Position numbers and translations under genes: made by a program
Source of the DNA: Escherichia coli 042
GTDB taxonomy: Bacteria > Pseudomonadota > Gammaproteobacteria > Enterobacterales > Enterobacteriaceae
DNA length: 64,000 nt
Assembly: GCF_000027125.1 (NCBI RefSeq)
Contig: NC_017626.1
Reading direction: 5' to 3' (one strand)
The notes under the pieces: model-generated
What the model saw: the letters and a program-made list of their open reading frames with translations, nothing else
Told to the model about the DNA's origin: nothing
Databases searched by the model: none
Shown: piece after piece, positions 11,723 to 36,532 of the stretch
How the letters are laid out: each line of letters opens with the position of its first letter
Position numbering within the stretch: the first letter of the stretch is position 1

Positions 11723-12655
11723 TTAATTCTCCCGATGCAGTAAATCCTGATAGATCCCCGTTAATATGCCATTTGGCGCAAATTGTTTTTTAATCCACTG
11801 CGTCACCTGACCCGTAGCAGAATGCTGAGTCGCCAGTAACATGCGCGAATCCTGGCGCGGATTATGGATTTGTCGGGTAACCAGCAGGGATTGCGTCATC
11901 GCCTCACGGACCATGTAATCCGGCAAAAACCCAATTCCTTCACCTAAAATCTGGCACTGACATTTGGTGTTGAAATCTGGCACCAGAATCGACTCCTGCC
12001 CATGCAGCAACCAGCCCACTTTTTTATTAATCGTATGCGCGGTGTCCTCCACCATGATATTAGGATAGAGACGCAGTTGGCTTTCGGCGATCGGCTCCGG
12101 CACAAAGGCTAATGGGTGATCCGGGGCGATAGCAAAAGCCCAGCGAATTGCGCCAATCTCCGTGTAATCAATGCCGCCGCCGTCCAGCAGTGTGTCGGGC
12201 GCGCCGATAGCAATATTCGCCTGATTATTAATAATCGCATCCCAGACGCCGTTATACACTTCGGTCGTCACGGTAATCTGGCAGGTTGGAAACTGCTTTT
12301 TCAGTACCTGTAATAAGCGTGCGGTGTGTTTGGGCGTATAAAGCAGTTGGTTAATACAAATGCGCACCCGTGCTTCTATACCCTGCGAAATAGTATCGAT
12401 GCTGCGTTTGATGGCGTGAAAATCATTCAGCAGGTCGGTAGCTTTGCGGAAAAAATAACGCCCGGACTCCGTTAACTCAATGCTTCGGGTACTGCGAGTG
12501 AACAGCACCACATCCAGCCCTGTTTCCATTCGCTTGATGGTGTAGCTAATGGCGGAAGTGGTTAAACCCAACTCTTCTGCGGCTTTACTGAAACTGCCAA
12601 AACGCGCAGCGGTAGTAAATGCCAACAGATTCTCTTCGGTAAAAATTGAGTTCAT
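11723..12655 (-). CDS. yahB: LysR-family transcriptional regulator
   Basis: 310-aa ORF; N-terminal HTH (FSKAAEELGLTTSAISYTIKRME) and LysR substrate-binding domain. Confidence 0.88.
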   Translation of the reverse strand: MNSIFTEENLLAFTTAARFGSFSKAAEELGLTTSAISYTIKRMETGLDVVLFTRSTRSIELTESGRYFFRKATDLLNDFHAIKRSIDTISQGIEARVRICINQLLYTPKHTARLLQVLKKQFPTCQITVTTEVYNGVWDAIINNQANIAIGAPDTLLDGGGIDYTEIGAIRWAFAIAPDHPLAFVPEPIAESQLRLYPNIMVEDTAHTINKKVGWLLHGQESILVPDFNTKCQCQILGEGIGFLPDYMVREAMTQSLLVTRQIHNPRQDSRMLLATQHSATGQVTQWIKKQFAPNGILTGIYQDLLHREN

Positions 12656-13501: not shown

Positions 13502-14107
13502 ATGACTATAAAAAATCTACCTGCCGACTATTTATTGGCTGCGCAACAGGGTGATATCGATAAAGTAAAAACCTGCCTTGCGCTGGGTGTCGATATTAAT
13601 ACCTGCGATCGTCAGGGGAAAACGGCAATTACGCTGGCAAGTTTATATCAGCAATATGCTTGCGTTCAGGCATTAATTGATGCCGGAGCGGATATTAATA
13701 AGCAAGATCAAATATGTTCAAATCCTTTTTTAATTAGCTGCCTGACCGGCGATTTAACCCTGTTACGGATTATTTTATCGGCTAAACCCGATCTTAATTG
13801 CGTCACCCGTTTTGGCGGTGTCGGCCTGACGCCTGCCTGTGAAAAAGGCCATTTAAGTATTGTAAAAGAGCTTTTGGCGCATACGGAGATTAACGTTAAC
13901 CAGACCAACCATGTTGGCTGGACGCCGCTACTGGAAGCAATTGTGCTTAATGATGGCGGGATTAAACAGCAGGCGATTGTCCAGTTATTGCTGGAACACG
14001 GTGCCAGCCCGCACATGACGGATAAATATGGCAAAACGCCGCTGGAACTGGCGCGGGAACGAGGCTTTGAAGAGATTGCGCAGTTACTGATTGCCGCAGG
14101 TGCATAA
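13502..14107 (+). CDS. yahD: ankyrin-repeat protein
   Basis: 201-aa ORF with repeated ankyrin-like motifs (GKTAITLAS..., GLTPACEKGHLSIVKELL, GWTPLLEAI, GKTPLELARERGFEEIAQLL). Confidence 0.85.
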   Translation: MTIKNLPADYLLAAQQGDIDKVKTCLALGVDINTCDRQGKTAITLASLYQQYACVQALIDAGADINKQDQICSNPFLISCLTGDLTLLRIILSAKPDLNCVTRFGGVGLTPACEKGHLSIVKELLAHTEINVNQTNHVGWTPLLEAIVLNDGGIKQQAIVQLLLEHGASPHMTDKYGKTPLELARERGFEEIAQLLIAAGA

Positions 14108-14146: not shown

Positions 14147-15010
14147 GTGTGGGCGCTAACTGCGGATGCTGATTTTCTGGCGCAGCGGGGGCAAGGACAG
14201 GTTGAACAGGTCTTTGCCAGAGCGGTAAATATCGCACTTCCGGCCCGCCAGCAGTTGCTGACGCTGCTTTGTGAAGAGTACGACAATGCGCCAAACAGTT
14301 GTCGGTTGGCACTCACTCACTTTGATGATCTGTTCCGGCATGGTGATAAGGTTCAGTTTGACGATCAAGGCATTACGGTTGGTCAACATCTTCATATAGA
14401 GATGAGTCGTTGTCGGCGTTGGCTGTCCCCAACCTTGCAAATGACCGCTGTGAATTTTCACCTTATCGCCTGGCAACAGTGGCATGACATTATTCATCAG
14501 CACCTGGGGGAAAATGAAACCCTGTTTAATTATCGCGGCGATAATCCGTTTTATCAGGCGTTAAATAAAGAATTACATATTAAACGACAGGCAGTTATTC
14601 AGGCAGTAAACGATAAACAAAATATCGCCTCAGCGGTCGTCAGTATGATGGGCTTAGGGATTGGCCTTACGCCATCAGCCGACGATTATTTAACAGGTCT
14701 GGCGCTTATTTTATTTATTTCCGGACATCCGTCGGAAAAATACAAAGAGGAATTTTATCTCGGTCTGCAACGCGGCAGAAATAATACCACGTTATTAAGT
14801 GCCATAACGCTGGAAGCCGCATTACAACAACGCTGCCGGGAAAATATTCATCGTTTTATTCATAACATTATTTATGACATCCCTGGGAACGCAACTCAGG
14901 CAATAGAAAAAATTAAACATATTGGCTCCAGTTCCGGCTGCGACATGCTGTATGGCATGGCCGATGGTTGTGCGCTGAGCCAAACCTACGGAGGGAATTA
15001 TGTCAGTTAA
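14147..15010 (+). CDS. yahE: DUF2877-family protein (YlbF-like)
   Basis: 287-aa ORF with GTG start; overlaps yahF start by 11 bp. Confidence 0.8.
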   Translation: MWALTADADFLAQRGQGQVEQVFARAVNIALPARQQLLTLLCEEYDNAPNSCRLALTHFDDLFRHGDKVQFDDQGITVGQHLHIEMSRCRRWLSPTLQMTAVNFHLIAWQQWHDIIHQHLGENETLFNYRGDNPFYQALNKELHIKRQAVIQAVNDKQNIASAVVSMMGLGIGLTPSADDYLTGLALILFISGHPSEKYKEEFYLGLQRGRNNTTLLSAITLEAALQQRCRENIHRFIHNIIYDIPGNATQAIEKIKHIGSSSGCDMLYGMADGCALSQTYGGNYVS

Positions 15011-16547
15011 AATAGTCATTAAACCGAATACCTATTTTGATTCTGTCTCGCTGATGTCTATCTCCACGCGTGCAAATAAACTCGACGGCGTCGAGCAGGC
15101 ATTTGTGGCGATGGCGACCGAAATGAACAAAGGCGTACTGAAGAATTTAGGGCTGCTGACGCCGGAGCTGGAGCAGGCGAAAAACGGCGACCTGATGATT
15201 GTCATTAACGGCAAAGCGGGCGCAGACAACGAGCAGTTGCTGGTGGAGATTGAAGAACTGTTCAACACCAAAGCGCAAAGCGGCTCGCACGAGGCGCGTT
15301 ACGCCACTATTGCCAGCGCCAAAAAGCATATCCCGGAAAGTAACCTGGCGGTGATTTCGGTCAACGGTCTGTTTGCTGCTCGCGAAGCGCGTCAGGCACT
15401 GCAAAACGATCTTAACGTGATGCTGTTTTCCGATAACGTCTCAGTTGAAGATGAACTGGCGCTCAAACAACTGGCCCACGAAAAAGGGCTGCTGATGATG
15501 GGGCCAGACTGCGGCACGGCGATTATCAACGGCGCGGCGCTCTGCTTTGGTAACGCCGTGCGTCGCGGCAACATCGGTATTGTTGGCGCATCTGGCACCG
15601 GCAGCCAGGAGCTGAGCGTCCGTATCCATGAATTTGGCGGCGGCGTTTCGCAACTGATTGGCACCGGCGGGCGCGACCTGAGCGAGAAAATCGGCGGCCT
15701 GATGATGCTCGACGCCATCGGGATGCTGGAAAACGATCCGCAAACTGAAATCATTGTGCTTATCTCCAAACCGCCTGCGCCTGCGGTGGCCCGCAAAGTG
15801 CTGGAACGCGCACGTGCCTGCCGCAAGCCGGTGGTGGTCTGCTTCCTCGGTCGTGGCGAAACGCCAGTGGATGAGCAGGGGCTACAGTTTGCCCGCGGCA
15901 GTAAAGAGGCGGCATTGAAAGCGGTGATGCTCTCCGGCGTGAAACAGGAACATCTCGAGCTGCATACGCTGAACCAGTCGTTGATTGCTGACGTGCGCGC
16001 TCGCCTGCAACCGCAGCAGAAATACATTCGTGGCCTGTTCTGCGGCGGTACGCTGTGTGACGAAACCATGTTCGCGGTGATGGAAAAACATGGCGATGTC
16101 TACAGCAATATTCAGCCCGATCCTGAATTCCGCCTGCAAGATATCAACCGCAGCATCAAACACACCTTCCTCGACTTTGGCGATGACGACTTCACCAACG
16201 GCAAGCCGCATCCAATGATTGACCCGACCAACCGTATCAGCCGCTTGATCGAAGAGGCGCGCGATCCAGAAGTGGCGGTGATCGTGATGGATTTTGTGCT
16301 CGGATTTGGATCGCATGAAGATCCGGTCGGTTCCACCATCGAGGCGATCAAAGAGGCGAAAGCGATCGCCGCTGCCGAAGGACGTGAGTTGATCATTCTC
16401 GCCTATGTGCTGGGTACCGATCTTGATACGCCATCATTAGAACAACAAAGCCAGATGCTGCTTGATGCCGGAGTGATTCTGGCAAGCAGCAGCACCAATA
16501 CCGGATTGCTGGCGCGTGAATTTATCTGCAAAGGGGAGGAAGCCTGA
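15000..16547 (+). CDS. yahF: FdrA-like protein with CoA-binding / succinyl-CoA-synthetase-like fold
   Basis: 515-aa ORF, GGAGGG RBS, Gly-rich nucleotide-binding motifs (GIVGASGTGSQE). Confidence 0.85.
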   Translation: MSVKIVIKPNTYFDSVSLMSISTRANKLDGVEQAFVAMATEMNKGVLKNLGLLTPELEQAKNGDLMIVINGKAGADNEQLLVEIEELFNTKAQSGSHEARYATIASAKKHIPESNLAVISVNGLFAAREARQALQNDLNVMLFSDNVSVEDELALKQLAHEKGLLMMGPDCGTAIINGAALCFGNAVRRGNIGIVGASGTGSQELSVRIHEFGGGVSQLIGTGGRDLSEKIGGLMMLDAIGMLENDPQTEIIVLISKPPAPAVARKVLERARACRKPVVVCFLGRGETPVDEQGLQFARGSKEAALKAVMLSGVKQEHLELHTLNQSLIADVRARLQPQQKYIRGLFCGGTLCDETMFAVMEKHGDVYSNIQPDPEFRLQDINRSIKHTFLDFGDDDFTNGKPHPMIDPTNRISRLIEEARDPEVAVIVMDFVLGFGSHEDPVGSTIEAIKEAKAIAAAEGRELIILAYVLGTDLDTPSLEQQSQMLLDAGVILASSSTNTGLLAREFICKGEEA

Positions 16548-17965
16548 TGAGCCAGTCACTGTTTAGCCAACCGTTGAACGTTATTAACGTCGGCATCGCC
16601 ATGTTTAGCGATGATCTGAAAAAGCAGCATGTAGAAGTGACCCAACTCGACTGGACGCCGCCGGGGCAGGGCAATATGCAGGTGGTGCAGGCGCTGGACA
16701 ACATTGCCGATTCCCCGCTGGCGGACAAAATCGCCTCCGCGAATCAGCAGGCGCTGGAGCGCATTATTCAGTCACATCCGGTGCTGATTGGTTTTGATCA
16801 GGCGATTAACGTGGTGCCGGGCATGACGCCGAAAACCATTCTTCACGCCGGGCCGCCGATCACCTGGGAAAAAATGTGCGGTGCGATGAAAGGCGCGGTC
16901 ACCGGGGCGCTGGTGTTCGAAGGGCTGGCGAAAGATCTCGACGAGGCGGCTGAACTGGCGGCCTCCGGGGAGATCTCCTTCTCGCCGTGCCACGAACATG
17001 ACTGCGTGGGATCGATGGCTGGTGTTACCTCGGCCTCGATGTTTATGCACATCGTAAAAAACAAAACCTACGGCAACATCGCTTACACCAATATGAGCGA
17101 GCAGATGGCGAAGATTTTGCGTATGGGCGCTAACGACCAGAGCGTGATTGACCGCCTCAACTGGATGCGCGATGTGCAGGGGCCCATGCTGCGCGACGCG
17201 ATGAAAATTATCGGCGAGATCGATCTGCGCTTGATGCTGGCGCAGGCGCTGCATATGGGCGATGAATGCCATAACCGCAATAACGCCGGGACTACGCTGC
17301 TGATTCAGGCGCTGACGCCGGGGATTATTCAGGCGGGCTATTCCGTCGAGCAACAGCGCGAAGTGTTTGAGTTTGTCGCCAGCAGCGACTACTTCTCCGG
17401 CCCGACGTGGATGGCGATGTGTAAAGCGGCGATGGATGCGGCGCACGGCATCGAATACAGCACCGTGGTGACCACGATGGCGCGTAACGGCGTCGAGTTC
17501 GGCCTGCGGGTCAGCGGATTACCGGGGCAGTGGTTTACCGGTCCGGCGCAGCAGGTGATCGGCCCGATGTTTGCCGGTTATAAGCCGGAAGATTCTGGAT
17601 TGGATATTGGCGACAGTGCCATCACCGAAACCTACGGTATTGGCGGATTTGCTATGGCGACCGCGCCTGCAATCGTCGCGCTGGTGGGCGGTACGGTGGA
17701 AGAGGCTATCGATTTCTCCCGTCAGATGCGCGAAATCACTCTCGGCGAAAACCCCAACGTCACCATTCCGCTGCTCGGTTTTATGGGCGTGCCGTCGGCA
17801 ATCGACATCACCCGCGTGGGCAGTAGCGGCATTCTGCCAGTGATCAACACCGCCATCGCTCATAAAGATGCGGGCATCGGCATGATTGGCGCGGGCATTG
17901 TGCATCCACCATTCGCCTGCTTCGAAAAAGCCATTCTTGGCTGGTGCGAACGTTACGGCGTCTGA
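16547..17965 (+). CDS. yahG: DUF1116-family protein (YlbE-like)
   Basis: 472-aa ORF; start overlaps yahF stop (TGATGA). Confidence 0.82.
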   Translation: MSQSLFSQPLNVINVGIAMFSDDLKKQHVEVTQLDWTPPGQGNMQVVQALDNIADSPLADKIASANQQALERIIQSHPVLIGFDQAINVVPGMTPKTILHAGPPITWEKMCGAMKGAVTGALVFEGLAKDLDEAAELAASGEISFSPCHEHDCVGSMAGVTSASMFMHIVKNKTYGNIAYTNMSEQMAKILRMGANDQSVIDRLNWMRDVQGPMLRDAMKIIGEIDLRLMLAQALHMGDECHNRNNAGTTLLIQALTPGIIQAGYSVEQQREVFEFVASSDYFSGPTWMAMCKAAMDAAHGIEYSTVVTTMARNGVEFGLRVSGLPGQWFTGPAQQVIGPMFAGYKPEDSGLDIGDSAITETYGIGGFAMATAPAIVALVGGTVEEAIDFSRQMREITLGENPNVTIPLLGFMGVPSAIDITRVGSSGILPVINTAIAHKDAGIGMIGAGIVHPPFACFEKAILGWCERYGV

Positions 17966-17988
17966 CCTGCAAAGTGCGCGTTGTCTCT

Positions 17989-18161
17989 GCCGGATGCGGC
18001 GTGAACGCCTTATCCGGCCTACGAGTGGCGCGAGAATCTGTAGGCCTGATAAGCGTAGCGCATCAGGCATTTGTCACCATTGCCGGATGCGGCGTGAACG
18101 CCTTATCCGGCCTACGAATGGCACGAGAATTCTAGGCCTGATAAGCGTAGCGCATCAGGCA
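17989..18161. repeat. BIME: four alternating REP palindromes
   Basis: gccggatgcggcgtgaacgccttatccggcctacg and gtaggcctgataagcgtagcgcatcaggca units, each present twice. Confidence 0.9.
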
Positions 18162-18210
18162 GTCTGGCGTTGGTCATAACCCCATCACCCTCTGTAGCGG
18201 ACATAACAAC

Positions 18211-19161
18211 ATGAAAGAACTTGTGGTCGTTGCCATTGGTGGCAACAGCATTATCAAAGATAACGCCAGCCAGTCGATTGAGCATCAGGCGGAGGCGGTG
18301 AAAGCCGTGGCCGATACGGTGCTGGAAATGCTGGCTTCCGATTACGACATTGTGCTGACCCACGGCAACGGGCCGCAGGTCGGGCTGGATTTACGCCGTG
18401 CGGAGATTGCCCACGAGCGTGAAGGGCTGCCCTTAATGCCGCTGGCGAACTGTGTGGCAGATACGCAAGGCGGCATTGGCTACTTGATCCAGCAGGCGCT
18501 GAACAACCGACTGGCGCGTCACAGCGAGAAAAAAGCCGTCACCGTGGTGACTCAGGTGGAAGTGGATATAAACGATCCGGGTTTTGCTCATCCCACCAAG
18601 CCCATCGGCGCATTCTTCAGTGAAAGCCAGCGTGACGAATTACAAAAGGCAAACCCTGACTGGCGTTTTGTTGAAGATGCCGGACGGGGCTATCGCCGCG
18701 TGGTCGCCTCGCCGGAACCGAAACGTATTGTCGAGGCACCTGCCATTAAGGCGCTGATCCAACAAGGCTTTGTCGTAATTGGTGCGGGCGGCGGTGGAAT
18801 TCCGGTAGTGCGTACTGACGCGGGGGATTACCAAAGCGTGGACGCGGTTATCGACAAAGATCTCTCTACCGCGCTGCTGGCCCGTGAAATTCACGCCGAC
18901 ATTCTGGTGATCACCACCGGCGTCGAAAAAGTCTGTATTCACTTTGGCAAGCCGCAGCAGCAGGCGCTGGATCGGGTGGATATTGCCACCATGACCCGCT
19001 ATATGCAGGAAGGGCATTTCCCGCCTGGCAGCATGTTGCCAAAAATCATCGCCAGCCTGGCGTTCCTGGAACAGGGCGGCAAAGAAGTGATTATCACCAC
19101 GCCGGAATGCCTGCCTGCGGCGCTGCGTGGTGAAACGGGCACCCACATTATTAAAACGTAA
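18211..19161 (+). CDS. yahI: carbamate kinase-like protein
   Basis: 316-aa ORF, amino-acid kinase fold (MKELVVVAIGGNSI...). Confidence 0.85.
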   Translation: MKELVVVAIGGNSIIKDNASQSIEHQAEAVKAVADTVLEMLASDYDIVLTHGNGPQVGLDLRRAEIAHEREGLPLMPLANCVADTQGGIGYLIQQALNNRLARHSEKKAVTVVTQVEVDINDPGFAHPTKPIGAFFSESQRDELQKANPDWRFVEDAGRGYRRVVASPEPKRIVEAPAIKALIQQGFVVIGAGGGGIPVVRTDAGDYQSVDAVIDKDLSTALLAREIHADILVITTGVEKVCIHFGKPQQQALDRVDIATMTRYMQEGHFPPGSMLPKIIASLAFLEQGGKEVIITTPECLPAALRGETGTHIIKT

Positions 19162-19170
19162 GGACGTAAG

Positions 19171-20550
19171 ATGAAAGAAAACAATAGCCGCCGTGAATTT
19201 CTGAGCCAGAGCGGTAAGATGGTCACCGCCGCCGCGCTGTTTGGTACCTCTGTGCCGCTCGCCCATGCGGCAGTCTCTGGCACAACCCACTGCGACGCGA
19301 ATAACACCATGAAAATCACTGACCCGCACTACTATCTCGACAACGTGCTGCTGGAAACCGGTTTTGACTACGAAAATGGCGTGGCGGTACAGACCCGCAT
19401 GGCGCGCCAGACCGTGGAGATTCAGGACGGTAAAATTGTTGCCCTGCGCGAGAACAAGCAGCATCCGGACGCCACGCTGCCGCACTATGACGCTGGCGGT
19501 AAGCTGATGCTGCCCACCACCCGCGACATGCATATTCATCTCGACAAAACCTTCTACGGCGGGCCGTGGCGCTCGCTCAATCGTCCGGCAGGCACCACTA
19601 TCCAGGACATGATCAAACTCGAGCAGAAAATGCTGCCGGAACTGCAACCGTACACTCAGGAACGAGCGGAAAAACTGATCGATTTATTGCAGTCGAAAGG
19701 CACCACCATTGCCCGCAGCCACTGCAATATCGAACCGGTTTCCGGCCTGAAAAATCTGCAAAATTTGCAGGCGGTGCTGGCGCGACGTCAGGCGGGCTTC
19801 GAGTGTGAAATTGTCGCCTTCCCGCAGCACGGTTTGCTGCTGTCGAAATCGGAACCCTTAATGCGCGAAGCGATGCAGGCAGGGGCGCATTACGTCGGCG
19901 GGCTGGACCCAACCAGTGTTGATGGCGCGATGGAAAAATCCCTCGACACCATGTTCCAGATTGCGCTGGACTACGACAAAGGCGTCGATATTCACCTACA
20001 CGAAACCACTCCGGCAGGCGTGGCAGCCATCAATTATATGGTTGAAACGGTAGAGAAAACGCCACAGCTGAAGGGCAAGCTGACCATCAGCCACGCCTTT
20101 GCGCTGGCAACGCTCAATGAGCAACAGGTAGATGAACTGGCGCACCGGATGGCGGCGCAGCAAATTTCTATCGCCTCGACGGTGCCGATTGGCACGTTGC
20201 ATATGCCGCTCAAACAACTGCACGACAAAGGCGTAAAAGTTATGACCGGCACCGACAGCGTTATCGACCACTGGTCGCCTTACGGCCTGGGCGACATGCT
20301 GGAAAAAGCCAATCTGTACGCGCAGCTCTATATTCGTCCTAACGAACAGAACCTCTCCCGCTCGCTGTTTTTAGCCACTGGCGATGTATTGCCGCTCAAC
20401 GAAAAAGGCGAGCGCGTGTGGCCCAAAGCGCAGGATGACGCCAGTTTTGTGCTGGTGGACGCCTCCTGTTCCGCCGAGGCGGTGGCGCGTATCTCGCCGA
20501 GAACGGCAACGTTCCATAAAGGACAACTGGTGTGGGGGAGTGTGGTGTAA
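19171..20550 (+). CDS. yahJ: Tat-exported amidohydrolase / deaminase (CodA-like metal-dependent hydrolase)
   Basis: 459-aa ORF; N-terminal SRREFLSQ twin-arginine motif followed by a hydrophobic stretch; HIHLD metal-binding motif. Confidence 0.85.
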   Translation: MKENNSRREFLSQSGKMVTAAALFGTSVPLAHAAVSGTTHCDANNTMKITDPHYYLDNVLLETGFDYENGVAVQTRMARQTVEIQDGKIVALRENKQHPDATLPHYDAGGKLMLPTTRDMHIHLDKTFYGGPWRSLNRPAGTTIQDMIKLEQKMLPELQPYTQERAEKLIDLLQSKGTTIARSHCNIEPVSGLKNLQNLQAVLARRQAGFECEIVAFPQHGLLLSKSEPLMREAMQAGAHYVGGLDPTSVDGAMEKSLDTMFQIALDYDKGVDIHLHETTPAGVAAINYMVETVEKTPQLKGKLTISHAFALATLNEQQVDELAHRMAAQQISIASTVPIGTLHMPLKQLHDKGVKVMTGTDSVIDHWSPYGLGDMLEKANLYAQLYIRPNEQNLSRSLFLATGDVLPLNEKGERVWPKAQDDASFVLVDASCSAEAVARISPRTATFHKGQLVWGSVV

Positions 20551-20669
20551 CGTTATCAGCGAGGATATCCGGGCAGGCACTATTCCGATTTTAAAACCCG
20601 ATATCCTCTGCGTTTTGCCCATGACGTACACTGCGGATTATCTTTTTTATCCAGGGATGGATAGACGCC

Positions 20670-21317
20670 GTGAAATTTCTTTGGTTATCGCTGTTGTTTC
20701 TGAGTCAGGCCGTCCTGGCAACTTGCCCTGCTGGAAATTCACAACACGAATGCGAGGCGGTGCGCATACAGCCCCTGGTCACGCCGGAGCAGAAAAAAGA
20801 TGCCTTAACGCAATTGCAAAAGTTTCAGCAAGCGCTGAGTGCAAAGAATGCCACGAAACTAAAAACCTTCTTAAAATTCCCCTACGATACCTATTTCGGC
20901 TTTCTCGCTGAGATTGAGTTGCCTGAATCTGAACCCTTCACAGAAGCACTATTTGATCGCCATTCAGAAACCATTATGCGGCGTCTGCATAATGTCACAA
21001 AATTCACGATACATCCGGGTACCCAATGGATTGATGATTATCTCAGTCATTCGCTGACGCCAGCGGAGCAAAAAAGAAAATATTATCCCCTCAATGATGG
21101 ACGTTTCTATTACGAAGAGAAAGGGGAGCGCCACTACGTCACGGGAATATGTGAACTGGCGATGTCGGGGAATATTTCTGACGATGGCATTACGCTGAAT
21201 ATTGGTTCGCAGGCTAATGAACAAATTCCACCGGCTGTTTGTGATGGCACAACTATACTGGAATTTGGCATGATTAACGGGCAGTTAAAGTTATTGCGTG
21301 TTTCTTTTGCGGGGTAA
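20670..21317 (+). CDS. hypothetical exported protein or lipoprotein, 215 aa
   Basis: GTG-initiated ORF, no upstream ATG in frame; N-terminus MKFLWLSLLFLSQAVLATC is a typical signal peptide (possible lipobox LATC); four Cys in the mature part; I do not recall an annotated K-12 gene between yahJ and yahK. Confidence 0.5.
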   Translation: MKFLWLSLLFLSQAVLATCPAGNSQHECEAVRIQPLVTPEQKKDALTQLQKFQQALSAKNATKLKTFLKFPYDTYFGFLAEIELPESEPFTEALFDRHSETIMRRLHNVTKFTIHPGTQWIDDYLSHSLTPAEQKRKYYPLNDGRFYYEEKGERHYVTGICELAMSGNISDDGITLNIGSQANEQIPPAVCDGTTILEFGMINGQLKLLRVSFAG

Positions 21318-33999: not shown

Positions 34000-35259
34000 G
34001 TGTCGCAAGATAACAACTTTAGCCAGGGGCCAGTCCCGCAGTCGGCGCGGAAAGGGGTATTGGCATTGACGTTCGTCATGCTGGGATTAACCTTCTTTTC
34101 CGCCAGTATGTGGACCGGCGGCACTCTCGGAACCGGTCTTAGCTATCATGATTTCTTCCTCGCAGTCCTCATCGGTAATCTTCTCCTCGGTATTTACACT
34201 TCATTTCTTGGTTACATTGGCGCAAAAACCGGCCTGACCACCCATCTTCTTGCTCGCTTCTCGTTTGGTGTTAAAGGCTCATGGCTGCCTTCACTGCTGC
34301 TGGGGGGTACCCAGGTTGGCTGGTTTGGCGTTGGCGTGGCGATGTTTGCCATTCCGGTGGGTAAGGCAACCGGGCTGGATATTAATTTGCTGATTGCCGT
34401 TTCCGGTTTACTGATGACCGTCACCGTCTTCTTTGGCATTTCGGCGCTGACGGTTCTTTCGGTGATTGCGGTTCCGGCTATCGCCTGTCTTGGCGGTTAT
34501 TCCGTGTGGCTGGCCGTTAACGGCATGGGCGGCCTGGACGCATTAAAAGCGGTCGTTCCTGCACAACCGCTAGATTTCAATGTCGCGCTGGCGCTGGTTG
34601 TGGGGTCATTTATCAGCGCGGGTACGCTCACCGCTGACTTTGTCCGGTTTGGTCGCAATGCCAAACTGGCGGTGCTGGTGGCGATGGTGGCCTTTTTCCT
34701 TGGCAACTCGTTGATGTTTATTTTCGGTGCAGCGGGAGCGGCGGCACTGGGCATGGCAGATATCTCTGATGTGATGATTGCTCAGGGCCTGCTGCTACCC
34801 GCGATTGTGGTGCTGGGGCTGAATATCTGGACCACCAACGATAACGCGCTCTATGCGTCGGGCTTAGGTTTCGCCAACATTACCGGTATGTCGAGCAAAA
34901 CCCTTTCGGTGATTAACGGTATTATCGGTACGGTCTGCGCACTATGGCTGTATAACAATTTTGTCGGCTGGCTGACCTTCCTTTCGGCAGCTATTCCTCC
35001 GGTAGGGGGCGTGATCATCGCCGACTATCTGATGAACCGTCGCCGCTATGAGCACTTTGCGACCACGCGTATGATGAGTGTCAATTGGGTGGCGATTCTG
35101 GCGGTCGCCTTGGGGATTGCCGCAGGCCACTGGTTACCGGGAATTGTTCCGGTCAACGCGGTATTAGGTGGCGCGCTGAGCTATCTGATCCTTAACCCGA
35201 TTTTGAATCGTAAAACGACAGCAGCAATGACGCATGTGGAGGCTAACAGTGTCGAATAA
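34000..35259 (+). CDS. codB: cytosine permease
   Basis: 419-aa ORF with GTG start ([14 protein letters not shown]...), NCS1-family membrane protein. Confidence 0.92.
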
Positions 35260-36532
35260 CGCTTTACAAACAATTATTAACGCCCGGTTACCCGGCAAAG
35301 AGGGGCTGTGGCAGATTCATCTGCAGGACGGAAAAATCAGCGCCATTGATGCGCAATCTGGTGTGATGCCCGTAACTGAAAACAGCCTGGATGCCGAACA
35401 AGGTTTAGTTTTACCGCCGTTTGTGGAGCCGCATATTCACCTGGACACCACGCAAACCGCCGGGCAACCGAACTGGAATCAGTCCGGCACGCTGTTTGAA
35501 GGCATTGAACGCTGGGCCGAGCGCAAAGCGTTATTAACCCATGACGATGTGAAACAACGCGCATGGCAAACGCTGAAATGGCAGATTGCCAACGGCATTC
35601 AGCATGTGCGTACCCATGTCGATGTTTCCGACGCAACGCTGACTGCGTTGAAAGCGATGCTGGAAGTGAAACAGGAAGTTGCGCCGTGGATTGATCTGCA
35701 AATCGTCGCCTTCCCGCAGGAAGGGATTTTGTCGTATCCCAACGGTGAAGCGTTGCTGGAAGAGGCGCTACGCTTAGGAGCAGACGTTGTTGGGGCGATT
35801 CCGCATTTTGAATTTACCCGTGAATATGGCGTGGAGTCGCTGCATAAAACCTTCGCCCTGGCGCAAAAATACGACCGTCTCATCGACGTTCACTGTGATG
35901 AGATCGATGATGAGCAGTCGCGCTTTGTCGAAACCGTTGCCGCCCTGGCGCACCGTGAAGGAATGGGCGCACGAGTCACCGCCAGCCATACTACGGCAAT
36001 GCACTCCTATAACGGGGCGTATACCTCACGCCTGTTCCGCCTGCTGAAAATGTCCGGTATTAACTTTGTCGCCAACCCGTTGGTCAATATTCATCTACAA
36101 GGGCGTTTCGATACGTATCCAAAACGTCGCGGCATCACGCGCGTTAAAGAGATGCTGGAGTCAGGCATTAACGTCTGCTTTGGTCACGATGATGTCTTCG
36201 ATCCGTGGTATCCGCTGGGAACGGCGAATATGCTGCAAGTGCTGCATATGGGGCTGCATGTTTGCCAGCTGATGGGCTACGGGCAGATTAACGACGGCCT
36301 GAATTTAATCACCCACCACAGCGCCAGGACGTTGAATTTGCAGGATTACGGCATTGCCGCCGGAAACAGCGCCAACCTGATTATCCTGCCGGCTGAAAAT
36401 GGATTTGATGCGCTGCGCCGTCAGGTTCCGGTACGTTATTCGGTACGTGGCGGCAAGGTGATTGCCAGCACACAACCGGCACAAACCACCGTATATCTGG
36501 AGCAGCCAGAAGCCATCGATTACAAACGGTGA
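35249..36532 (+). CDS. codA: cytosine deaminase
   Basis: ORF 35234..36532; conserved start is GTG 35249 ([15 protein letters not shown]), overlapping the codB stop by 11 bp; HIHLD amidohydrolase motif. Confidence 0.92.

Follow-up and report, generated by a model that had tools for sequence, protein, structure and literature searches.

In Bacillus, Tat translocases are encoded next to their substrates, PhoD with TatAd/TatCd and EfeB/YwbN with TatAy/TatCy, and in Pseudomonas aeruginosa the periplasmic ankyrin protein AnkB, whose gene lies beside katB, is required for full catalase activity. Published tables already list YahJ, with this leader, among the Tat substrates of E. coli, one of the lists being TATFIND-based (PMC7549933, PMC3027627), and YahJ is a TatP-predicted substrate in Table 2 of PMC7549933. 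The non-redox-cofactor Tat substrates AmiA, AmiC, SufI, MdoD and YcbK resemble YahJ in having an S/T-R-R-x-F-L-type leader, a moderate h-region and an AxA site; YahJ itself, with the same leader, is named in these published lists, so that this is the same protein, with no difference of kind. The Tat signal of YahJ is not new: papers on E. coli have listed it for about two decades, and because YahJ is standard in E. coli Tat-substrate lists, its leader alone adds nothing to what was known.

The transcarbamylase AllFGH has recently been defined experimentally as an oxamic transcarbamylase and, with the carbamate kinase AllK, belongs to anaerobic allantoin degradation (PMC11326118). YahE, YahF, YahG and YahI fall in the same families and their genes are likewise adjacent. 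The yah locus is nonetheless a separate paralogous locus, and it has an ankyrin protein and a predicted Tat-exported amidohydrolase, both of which the all cluster lacks; yah is not mentioned in the AllFGH paper. Literature searches on yah operon function, on YahD and on DUF1116/DUF2877 clusters with an ankyrin protein returned nothing relevant, and found no work on YahEFG biochemistry.

Here we describe the yah operon of Escherichia coli 042 within a 64,000-nucleotide stretch of contig NC_017626.1 (the window; Table 1). YahJ very probably belongs to the CodA/AtzC branch of mononuclear-metal amidohydrolases and acts outside the cytoplasm; its textbook twin-arginine signal makes export of the folded protein to the periplasm almost certain. 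The analysis supplies context for an uncharacterized operon, in which a predicted periplasmic CodA/AtzC-type hydrolase is accompanied by an AllFGH-transcarbamylase paralogue and a carbamate kinase, together with a concrete co-export hypothesis.

Table 1. Features of the yah operon and of codA, with positions in the window.
Feature	Position	Strand	Basis or remark
yahB, LysR-type regulator, divergent	11723..12655	-	Pfam HTH_1 and LysR_substrate; co-occurs in 37/85 loci
yahD, 201-aa ankyrin-repeat protein, no signal peptide, first in operon	13502..14107	+	Pfam Ank families
yahE, AllH-family	14147..15010	+	Pfam PF11392 AllH, E = 2.7e-28
yahF, AllF/FdrA-like	15000..16547	+	Pfam CoA_binding and Ligase_CoA; NCBIfam PRK06091 FdrA, 492 bits
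yahG, AllG-family	16547..17965	+	Pfam PF06545 AllG, E = 7e-89
yahI, carbamate kinase, immediately 5' of yahJ	18211..19161	+	NCBIfam PRK12352, 641 bits; annotation
Shine-Dalgarno AAGGA, 6 nt 5' of the yahJ ATG, overlapping the yahI stop codon (19159-19161)	19160..19164	+	Sequence read
yahJ CDS, amidohydrolase with Tat signal, 459 aa + stop	19171..20550	+	ORF, translation
Predicted YahJ signal peptide, residues 1-33, MKENNSRREFLSQSGKMVTAAALFGTSVPLAHA	19171..19269	+	Sequence, TATFIND-like rule, published leader
Twin-arginine motif S6-R7-R8-E9-F10-L11	19186..19203	+	Sequence, conservation in 83 loci
Hydrophobic core M17-L30, MVTAAALFGTSVPL	19219..19260	+	Inside 25-residue uncharged stretch
A31-H32-A33 signal peptidase I site, predicted cleavage A33/A34	19261..19269	+	Sequence
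H121-I-H123-L-D125, HxH metal-binding motif	19531..19545	+	Aligns with CodA H61/H63
H275-L-H277-E278, third metal histidine and catalytic acid	19993..20004	+	Aligns with CodA H214...E217 and HLHE of PDB 6nbo
H308, equivalent of CodA H246	20092..20094	+	At least 90% conserved; alignments with CodA and solved structures
D362, metal-binding aspartate, equivalent of CodA D313	20254..20256	+	Invariant; alignments
codA, cytosolic cytosine deaminase (comparison)	35249..36532	+	Translation

The yahJ gene and its leader

In E. coli genome annotations yahJ carries the label "amidohydrolase family protein", and its ATG is the earliest start possible downstream of the preceding stop codon. The first-pass annotation had described a leader with an S-R-R-x-F-L motif, a hydrophobic core and an AxA cleavage site at 19171-19270. 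This description is borne out by the sequence, the published lists and the comparative data given below, and the leader does start where it was placed, but codons 1-33 stop at 19269, one base earlier. The leader in the window is identical at 32 of 33 residues to that printed in PMC7549933, the one substitution being N4 here for S4. The motif SRREFL conforms to the S/T-R-R-x-F-L-K consensus with S replacing the final K, and the h-region has a best 10-residue Kyte-Doolittle mean of 1.63 within an uncharged stretch ending in A31-H32-A33.

Leaders in the window were scored with our own simplified TATFIND-like rule, which asks for an RR motif within the first 35 aa, an uncharged run of 13 residues or more after it, and a small-x-small site. 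Of 1245 candidate starts, drawn from 149 open frames, YahJ alone is a genuine N-terminus that passes, all other matches being internal starts within a membrane protein. When the first 60 YahJ residues were shuffled 200,000 times, only 24 shuffles passed; because shuffles and other starts pass so rarely, the leader pattern lies beyond chance. The Pfam TAT_signal and NCBIfam/TIGR Tat-signal HMMs do not match full-length YahJ or, even at E values up to 10, its isolated 50-residue N-terminus, which we treat as a limit of sensitivity, as these models are very short and HMMER filters discard weak matches. A match to such a model helps to detect a Tat signal but does not define one. Residues 1-46 are disordered in the AlphaFold model (pLDDT <50) and on that basis lie outside the fold. 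A disulfide involving Cys41 was considered as a periplasmic hallmark and rejected, since Cys41 is not conserved and Cys432 is conserved in cytoplasmic relatives too.

Conservation of the leader and the route of export

Orthologous yahJ loci were compared in Proteobacteria, Bacillota and Bacteroidota (83 loci, 50-99% identity to YahJ). The RR-x-F-[LI] motif is invariant across them (R 83/83, R/K 79/4, F 83/83, L/I 66/17) while the h- and c-regions of the leader drift; S precedes the RR core in 67 of the loci, and small-x-small sites (AYA, GYA, AWA, ASA) occur at the same leader position. The RR core is also retained in 114/120 of the closest YahJ homologues, and the sole RR-to-RH variant seen belongs to one Xenorhabdus lineage. 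Relatives with 45% identity or less are ~400-415 aa long, lack the first ~50 residues and begin at about YahJ residue 50, and the NCBIfam model PRK06846 matches YahJ strongly (712.9 bits against a cut-off of 447) over residues 49-458 only; from these common starting points the leader is an added targeting module. In an orthologue at 35% identity, the AllH-AllF-AllG-kinase synteny persists together with the RR leader. Three signal-less relatives adjoin ABC importers and have no ankyrin or AllFGH genes near them.

In Priestia, tatA and then tatC come directly after the orthologue (51% identity, motif SRRRFI), and a Xan_ur_permease gene lies divergently upstream of it. This is the arrangement of the dedicated Tat substrates in Bacillus, with an amidohydrolase as cargo rather than a phosphodiesterase or peroxidase, and the dedication of this TatAC pair is putative. 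The adjacency is particular to Priestia (L003 and L004), as no Neobacillus or proteobacterial locus has it.

Fused to many E. coli Tat leaders, reporters compatible with Sec leave by the Sec route, and the YahJ leader could be a Sec or dual-route signal, the protein being exported unfolded via SecYEG and binding its metal in the periplasm. Its h-region is reasonably hydrophobic, its c-region carries no basic "Sec-avoidance" residue of the kind that often blocks Sec use, and its motif departs from the S-R-R-x-F-L-K consensus in having no K. A Sec peptide, however, has no need of the R-R-x-F-[LI] motif that is strict over 83 loci and three phyla; the best hydrophobicity window, only 1.63, lies in the moderate range usual in Tat leaders, and the position of tatA-tatC immediately 3' of the Priestia orthologue likewise speaks for Tat. 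We consider Sec export improbable.

Even less credible are two readings in which YahJ is not released into the periplasm. YahJ would be cytoplasmic, like its operon partners, if the RR leader were vestigial or were bypassed by starting at Met47, the region where signal-less relatives begin; such homologues exist, all other yah products are predicted to be cytoplasmic, and Met47 stands two residues ahead of the start of the PRK06846 family model. Yet Met47 has no Shine-Dalgarno sequence (the sequence 5' of it is GCGAATAACACC) and is not conserved across YahJ orthologues, and a Met47 start for a cytoplasmic isoform was rejected on both counts. A vestigial leader, moreover, would not hold an invariant motif and an AxA-type site over 83 loci, with loss of the second arginine to histidine confined to the single Xenorhabdus lineage. 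Retention of an uncleaved leader, leaving YahJ anchored N-terminally in the inner membrane and facing the periplasm, draws on the existence of membrane-anchored Tat substrates, the subject of PMC10924467, and on the flexible ~13-residue linker that follows the predicted cleavage site. Against such an anchor stand the canonical A-H-A site with its small-x-small equivalents in orthologues and an h-region of only ~14 residues, which is broken by G, T and S and so is short for a stable transmembrane helix; we rate it very unlikely, on a par with the cytoplasmic reading.

For export of folded YahJ by Tat, we envisage that the precursor folds and takes up its metal in the cytoplasm; the analogy with CodA and AtzC makes Fe2+ or Zn2+ the probable metal. 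The TatBC receptor would bind S-R-R-E-F-L, YahJ would pass the inner membrane folded, and signal peptidase I would cleave after A-H-A33 to give a soluble periplasmic protein of ~426 residues.

The amidohydrolase domain

YahJ matches Pfam Amidohydro_1 (68.9 bits, cut-off 29.7) and Amidohydro_3 (29.7 bits, cut-off 25), and contains the full set of amidohydrolase metal ligands (HxH, third His and Asp) together with the catalytic His and acid. Residues H121, H123, D125, K126, H275, H277 and D362 are invariant in a 22-sequence family alignment; E278, the equivalent of the CodA catalytic Glu, is present in YahJ and replaced in some relatives. The AlphaFold model has a (beta/alpha)8-barrel fold, with TM scores of 0.84 to 6nbo, 0.81-0.82 to AtzC and 0.74 to CodA.

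The first-pass annotation called YahJ CodA-like, pointing to an HIHLD metal site and to a copy of CodA in the same window. Both are where they should be (Table 1), CodA having its own HIHLD at 35432, and the likeness holds for the metal and catalytic residues: the two proteins belong to the same superfamily branch, with identical HIHLD and conserved equivalents of CodA Q156, H214, E217, H246 and D313. It does not extend to a close relationship. Identity is 26% over 323 aa (E = 2e-22), YahJ has Ser where CodA has D314, and CodA is cytoplasmic and has no leader. YahJ also falls far below the NCBIfam cytosine-deaminase cut-offs (PRK07572, 103/438; PRK09230, 82/483; PRK07583, 72/403) and should therefore not be called a cytosine deaminase.

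By both sequence and fold, YahJ is closer to the AtzC-type N-isopropylammelide isopropylaminohydrolases than to CodA. AtzC-type proteins (PDB 6nbo, 2qt3 and 4cqb) are its best solved-structure sequence matches (E = 4e-44 and 3e-30) and share its HxHLDK, H-x-H-E/D, SHA and D-x-x-x-D-x-W motifs, although identity is only 22-28%. The solved chains have no comparable leader, alignments beginning at chain residue ~43-51 against ~104-107 in YahJ, and AtzC acts in atrazine catabolism whereas YahJ belongs to a carbamate-kinase operon.

Operon neighbors and the ankyrin protein YahD

Adjacency of the AllH, AllF, AllG and carbamate kinase genes is kept in 28-34 of 85 yahJ loci, including a Neobacillus locus and that of the orthologue at 35% identity. 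Citrobacter, Providencia and others have, between yahG and yahI, a gene for a 516-aa protein with 12 TM segments, which sources name as a xanthine or AGZA-family permease. This permease is absent from the window and from most E. coli, and a search of the window for a remnant of the gene found none, the yahG-yahI gap consisting of REP repeats. The yah operon ancestrally had a purine-type permease, which most E. coli have lost.

Periplasmic YahJ would most likely deaminate or dealkylaminate a nucleobase-like heterocycle. The first-pass annotation had concluded from the leader that the substrate is processed in the periplasm, which is reasonable and consistent with both the permease and the exported ankyrin partner of relatives. 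More loosely, the YahJ product or a derivative may be imported, in most enterics by the purine-type permease encoded between yahG and yahI, and could feed a cytoplasmic carbamoyl-group pathway in which YahE/F/G (AllH/F/G paralogues) and then YahI yield ATP and ammonia. Carbamate kinase requires ADP/ATP and the yah products other than YahJ all look cytoplasmic, which makes this link from periplasm to cytoplasm conjectural. Together, the predicted periplasmic hydrolase, the AllFGH paralogue with its carbamate kinase, the ancestral permease and the ankyrin partner confine the likely yah substrates to nucleobase-like compounds met outside the cell.

Across species the commonest neighbor of yahJ is yahD, which lies within 10 kb in 41/85 loci, and yahD-like genes stand beside yahJ orthologues even in loci that have no yahEFGI. 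The YahD-like proteins encoded next to yahJ orthologues carry signal peptides in Microvirga and a lipobox in Pontibacter and neither in enterics, and 48 of 56 short alphaproteobacterial YahD homologues have signal-like N-termini. YahD accordingly has the attributes of one half of a hitchhiker pair: it is signal-less, its gene lies beside that of a Tat substrate, and it has extracytoplasmic homologues elsewhere.

Since yahD accompanies yahJ without yahEFGI, and the Microvirga and Pontibacter versions have gained Sec or lipoprotein signals, we suggest as a speculative and rather unlikely possibility that YahD is a partner of YahJ outside the cytoplasm and may be carried into the periplasm in complex with folded YahJ, by way of the Tat signal of YahJ. 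Such hitchhiking, if true, would explain why a non-redox hydrolase uses Tat at all. An AlphaFold2 model of YahD-(G4S)6-YahJ, made with monomer weights, a shallow set of 19 paired rows and no negative control, has a pTM of 0.58 with both domains confident and undocked. Like the YahD-like proteins of Microvirga and Pontibacter, AnkB is an ankyrin-repeat protein with an export signal whose gene lies beside that of an enzyme; it differs from YahD in its enzyme partner and in that enteric YahD has no signal.

The twin-arginine leader of YahJ

Codons 1-33 of yahJ translate as MKENNSRREFLSQSGKMVTAAALFGTSVPLAHA, which exactly matches the N-terminal sequence reported in the first-pass annotation; the end coordinate of 19270 assigned to the leader there is one base too far. 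A simplified TATFIND-like rule of our own asks for an RR motif in residues 1-35, an uncharged stretch of at least 13 residues starting no more than 12 residues past the motif, and a small-x-small site. Over the window (1245 candidate starts, 149 open frames) YahJ is the sole genuine N-terminus to pass, the remaining passes being internal starts in a polytopic membrane protein, and just 24 of 200,000 shuffles of YahJ residues 1-60 pass. The S-R-R-x-F-L motif, hydrophobic core and AxA site described earlier are confirmed. Curated Tat-signal HMMs give no match to YahJ, which we regard as a limit of such very short profiles.

The Tat signal is already known. Tullman-Ercek et al. (2007), who tested E. 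coli Tat leaders systematically with reporters, reportedly included that of YahJ. The protein (b0324, 'putative deaminase') is among the TATFIND-based E. coli substrates in PMC3027627, and Table 2 of PMC7549933, on an ExPEC strain, gives it as one of 25 Tat substrates predicted by TatP and prints its leader as MKESNSRREFLSQSGKMVTAAALFGTSVPLAHA, to which the window leader is identical at 32 of 33 positions; a yahJ deletion mutant in that study had a modest competitive defect (competitive index 0.70, p = 0.02). The Tat interpretation is supported by published lists and by motif conservation, yet is not new.

Homologues were collected by searching 1.84 billion cluster representatives with HMMER, and their N-termini were inspected. 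RR leaders (SRRAFL, SRRRFI, SRREFL, SRRALL, SRRRTF) are present in relatives at ~49-62% identity and in one at 35%; most relatives at or below 45% identity are 400-415 aa long, with an N-terminus aligning at YahJ residue ~50. The NCBIfam PRK06846 model spans residues 49-458 only, and in the AlphaFold model residues 1-46 have pLDDT <50 and the catalytic domain is confident. The motif is kept in 114 of the 120 closest homologues; of the other six, four are read-through products joining YahI to YahJ, one is a truncated entry, and one is a Xenorhabdus lineage that has R-H. A locus set was assembled from 80 loci at 50-99% identity, found by a separate scan of one genome per species, and five earlier ones, and the motif was counted over the 83 of these 85 with a readable 5' end. 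The first arginine and the phenylalanine are present in 83/83, the second arginine is R in 79 and K in 4, the last position is L in 66 and I in 17, and position -1 is S in 67; the h- and c-regions vary freely. All four R-K loci are from Bacteroidota.

Every Bacteroidota orthologue (Flavobacterium, Pontibacter; loci L081, L083, L084 and L085, protein P0124) has R-K and none R-R (SRKKFL, NRKQFL, TRKDFI, SRKGFL), a natural variation on the twin-arginine pair that extends across the lineage. The Xenorhabdus szentirmaii protein P0092 (NRHEFL, His for the second arginine) may represent a copy that is decaying or whose export is naturally impaired. The carbamate kinase-YahJ fusions (P0002-P0004 and P0008, 677-780 aa, each a single-member cluster) are probably read-through or frameshift artefacts over the 9-nt yahI-yahJ gap.

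In Priestia (Bacillaceae), tatA and tatC lie directly downstream of the yahJ orthologue, with a divergent Xan_ur_permease gene upstream of it; dedicated Tat cargo genes are known to adjoin tatA/tatC in Bacillus. Judging its localisation from sequence and comparison, we consider it very probable that YahJ folds and binds metal in the cytoplasm, is exported by Tat, is cleaved after A33, and then works in soluble form in the periplasm, deaminating or dealkylaminating a nucleobase-like compound. Sec or dual-route export seems improbable, and we give very little credence either to the reading that the leader is vestigial or that a cytoplasmic isoform starts at Met47, or to the reading that it stays uncleaved as a membrane anchor. 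One or more of four observations weaken each of these rivals: strict conservation of the motif, its AxA site, the lack of a ribosome-binding site before Met47, and the tatAC adjacency.

Coordinates of features in the window and in compared loci
Feature	Sequence	Position	Strand	Remarks
yahG-yahI gap	window	17966-18210		REP repeats
yahJ nucleotide query	window	19100-20600
AAGGA	window			6 nt upstream of yahJ ATG; overlaps stop codon of preceding carbamate-kinase gene
yahJ ORF	window	19171-20550	+	459 codons; ATG is earliest possible start past upstream stop codon
yahJ leader, codons 1-33	window	19171-19269	+
ORF downstream of yahJ	window	20670-21317	+	215 aa
codA	window	35249-36532	+
Polytopic membrane protein, internal starts	window	near 38.9-39.6 kb
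Extra gene between yahG and yahI	L010	7461-9011
Extra gene between yahG and yahI	L036	7247-8809
Ankyrin-TPR-like fusion	L006	2783-4039		418 aa
Second yah-like cluster	L090	3107-11575

Enzyme class

YahJ belongs to Pfam families Amidohydro_3 and Amidohydro_1 and aligns with the CodA of the window at 26% identity over 323 residues (E = 2e-22). Common to both are H61/H63 (HIHLD), Q156, H214, E217, H246 and D313 in CodA numbering, whereas D314 of CodA is Ser in YahJ; in a 22-sequence family alignment H121, H123, D125, K126, Q219, H275, H277 and D362 of YahJ are invariant, and H308 nearly so. The closest solved structures are AtzC-type N-isopropylammelide isopropylaminohydrolases, 6nbo (E = 4e-44, TM 0.84) and AtzC (E = 3e-30, TM 0.81-0.82), with CodA behind them (E = 2e-16, TM 0.74). 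Scores against NCBIfam cytosine-deaminase models are far under the cut-offs and AtzC is nearer, so cytosine deaminase orthology was rejected. The earlier description of YahJ as CodA-like therefore holds only as far as the metal site and the branch within the superfamily are concerned: its sequence places YahJ in the CodA/AtzC branch, closer to AtzC, and does not reveal the substrate.

The yah cluster and its putative permease gene

The Tat finding as stated is of little interest; the by-products more worth pursuing are the AllFGH paralogy, the lost permease, the exported ankyrin partner and the tatAC adjacency in Priestia. YahE matches Pfam AllH, YahG matches AllG, YahF combines CoA_binding with Ligase_CoA and is matched by the FdrA model of NCBIfam, and YahI is a carbamate kinase by profile match. 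Work from 2024 established AllFGH as the oxamic transcarbamylase in the anaerobic breakdown of allantoin (PMC11326118, which makes no mention of yah genes).

Megablast places yahJ in 5042 of the 5426 complete E. coli genomes, where its product is annotated as a member of the amidohydrolase family and yahD-yahE-fdrA(yahF)-yahG-yahI lies upstream. Surveyed by tblastn, the 85 loci fall into three contexts. Many Enterobacterales have the full cluster, with yahB divergent from yahD-E-F-G-(extra gene)-I-J; it is rearranged in Gallibacterium, Neobacillus and the contig L006, whose orthologue keeps both RR leader and synteny at 35% identity. A minimal module takes two forms: in Cedecea, Enterobacter sp. 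and Erwinia yahB diverges from yahD-yahJ, and in Microvirga and Pontibacter the ankyrin gene follows yahJ. Elsewhere yahJ stands alone. Three signal-less relatives, including those of Lysinibacillus and Acinetobacter, lie beside ABC importers without yah-type neighbours.

The extra gene, found in Citrobacter, Providencia, Serratia and Enterobacter among others, encodes a product of 516-520 aa with ~12 transmembrane segments that has no match in Pfam, NCBIfam or PDB and is named a xanthine permease or AGZA-family permease in source databases. Its sequences from Proteobacteria and Bacillota share 65-98% identity. No permease remnant was found in the yahG-yahI gap of the window. More speculatively, where the permease is present the YahJ product would be imported through it, and a ureido intermediate, possibly after further steps, would be phosphorolysed by YahEFG, after which YahI would make ATP.

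A second yah-like cluster, mostly plasmid-borne, is present in 142 of 5426 E. coli genomes; its genes run ankyrin-AllH-FdrA-AllG-permease-carbamate kinase, and a LysR gene points away from them. In L090 (E. coli plasmid pSA186_2, NZ_CP022731.1) yahJ ends right after the K-E-S-D-R-R-R-E-F-L codons, upstream of an IS3 element, so that the plasmid copy has the permease and no YahJ and the chromosomal copy YahJ and no permease.

The yahJ query reaches at most 98.1% nucleotide identity among complete E. coli genomes, so that the window may derive from an Escherichia lineage that has diverged. Compared with 'Pseudocitrobacter' (L007/L008), YahF, G, I and J of the window are 96-99% identical and YahC, D and E only 55-74%, whereas all yah proteins compared are 90-98% identical in Escherichia albertii (L009); this split suggests that the yahFGIJ half may have been recently exchanged between genera. 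The ORF just downstream of yahJ, a hypothetical protein in the E. coli EcPF15 annotation with no Pfam or NCBIfam family, begins VKFLWLSLLFLSQAVLATC, resembling a Sec-type signal that may include a lipobox.

YahD, a possible ankyrin partner

YahD-like genes are the most frequent yahJ neighbour (41/85 loci, tblastn) and remain nearby where yahEFGI are absent. Enteric YahD (201 aa) has ankyrin repeats from its very N-terminus. Four Microvirga species have an adjacent homologue (~40% identity over full length, E = 1e-52) with an N-terminal extension evolving as a signal peptide, e.g. MRRSLAISILAALGIMGHSMTAGG/Q, and the Pontibacter homologue, whose ATG overlaps the yahJ stop codon, starts with a lipoprotein box, MSTLLLIFSFIFLTSC. 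Signal-like N-termini occur in 48 of 56 short alphaproteobacterial homologues, most of the other eight having a later annotated start codon. These export signals beside yahJ suggest that the ankyrin protein may act with YahJ outside the cytoplasm, and enteric YahD could possibly be co-exported on the YahJ Tat signal. As a crude test, an AlphaFold2 model of a YahD-YahJ linker fusion with 19 paired sequences gave pTM 0.58, both domains confident and undocked, and so lent no support to a docked complex.

In L006 and L086 (Neobacillus niacini) a YahD-like ankyrin domain is fused to C-terminal TPR-like repeats, the L086 protein having 395 aa and neither a signal peptide. Our literature search found no paper addressing YahD. 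The YahD part of the model superimposes on PDB 5d66 (Acinetobacter baumannii ABAYE2397; TM 0.94, 43% identity), an ankyrin domain lacking an assigned function and a possible structural template for YahD.
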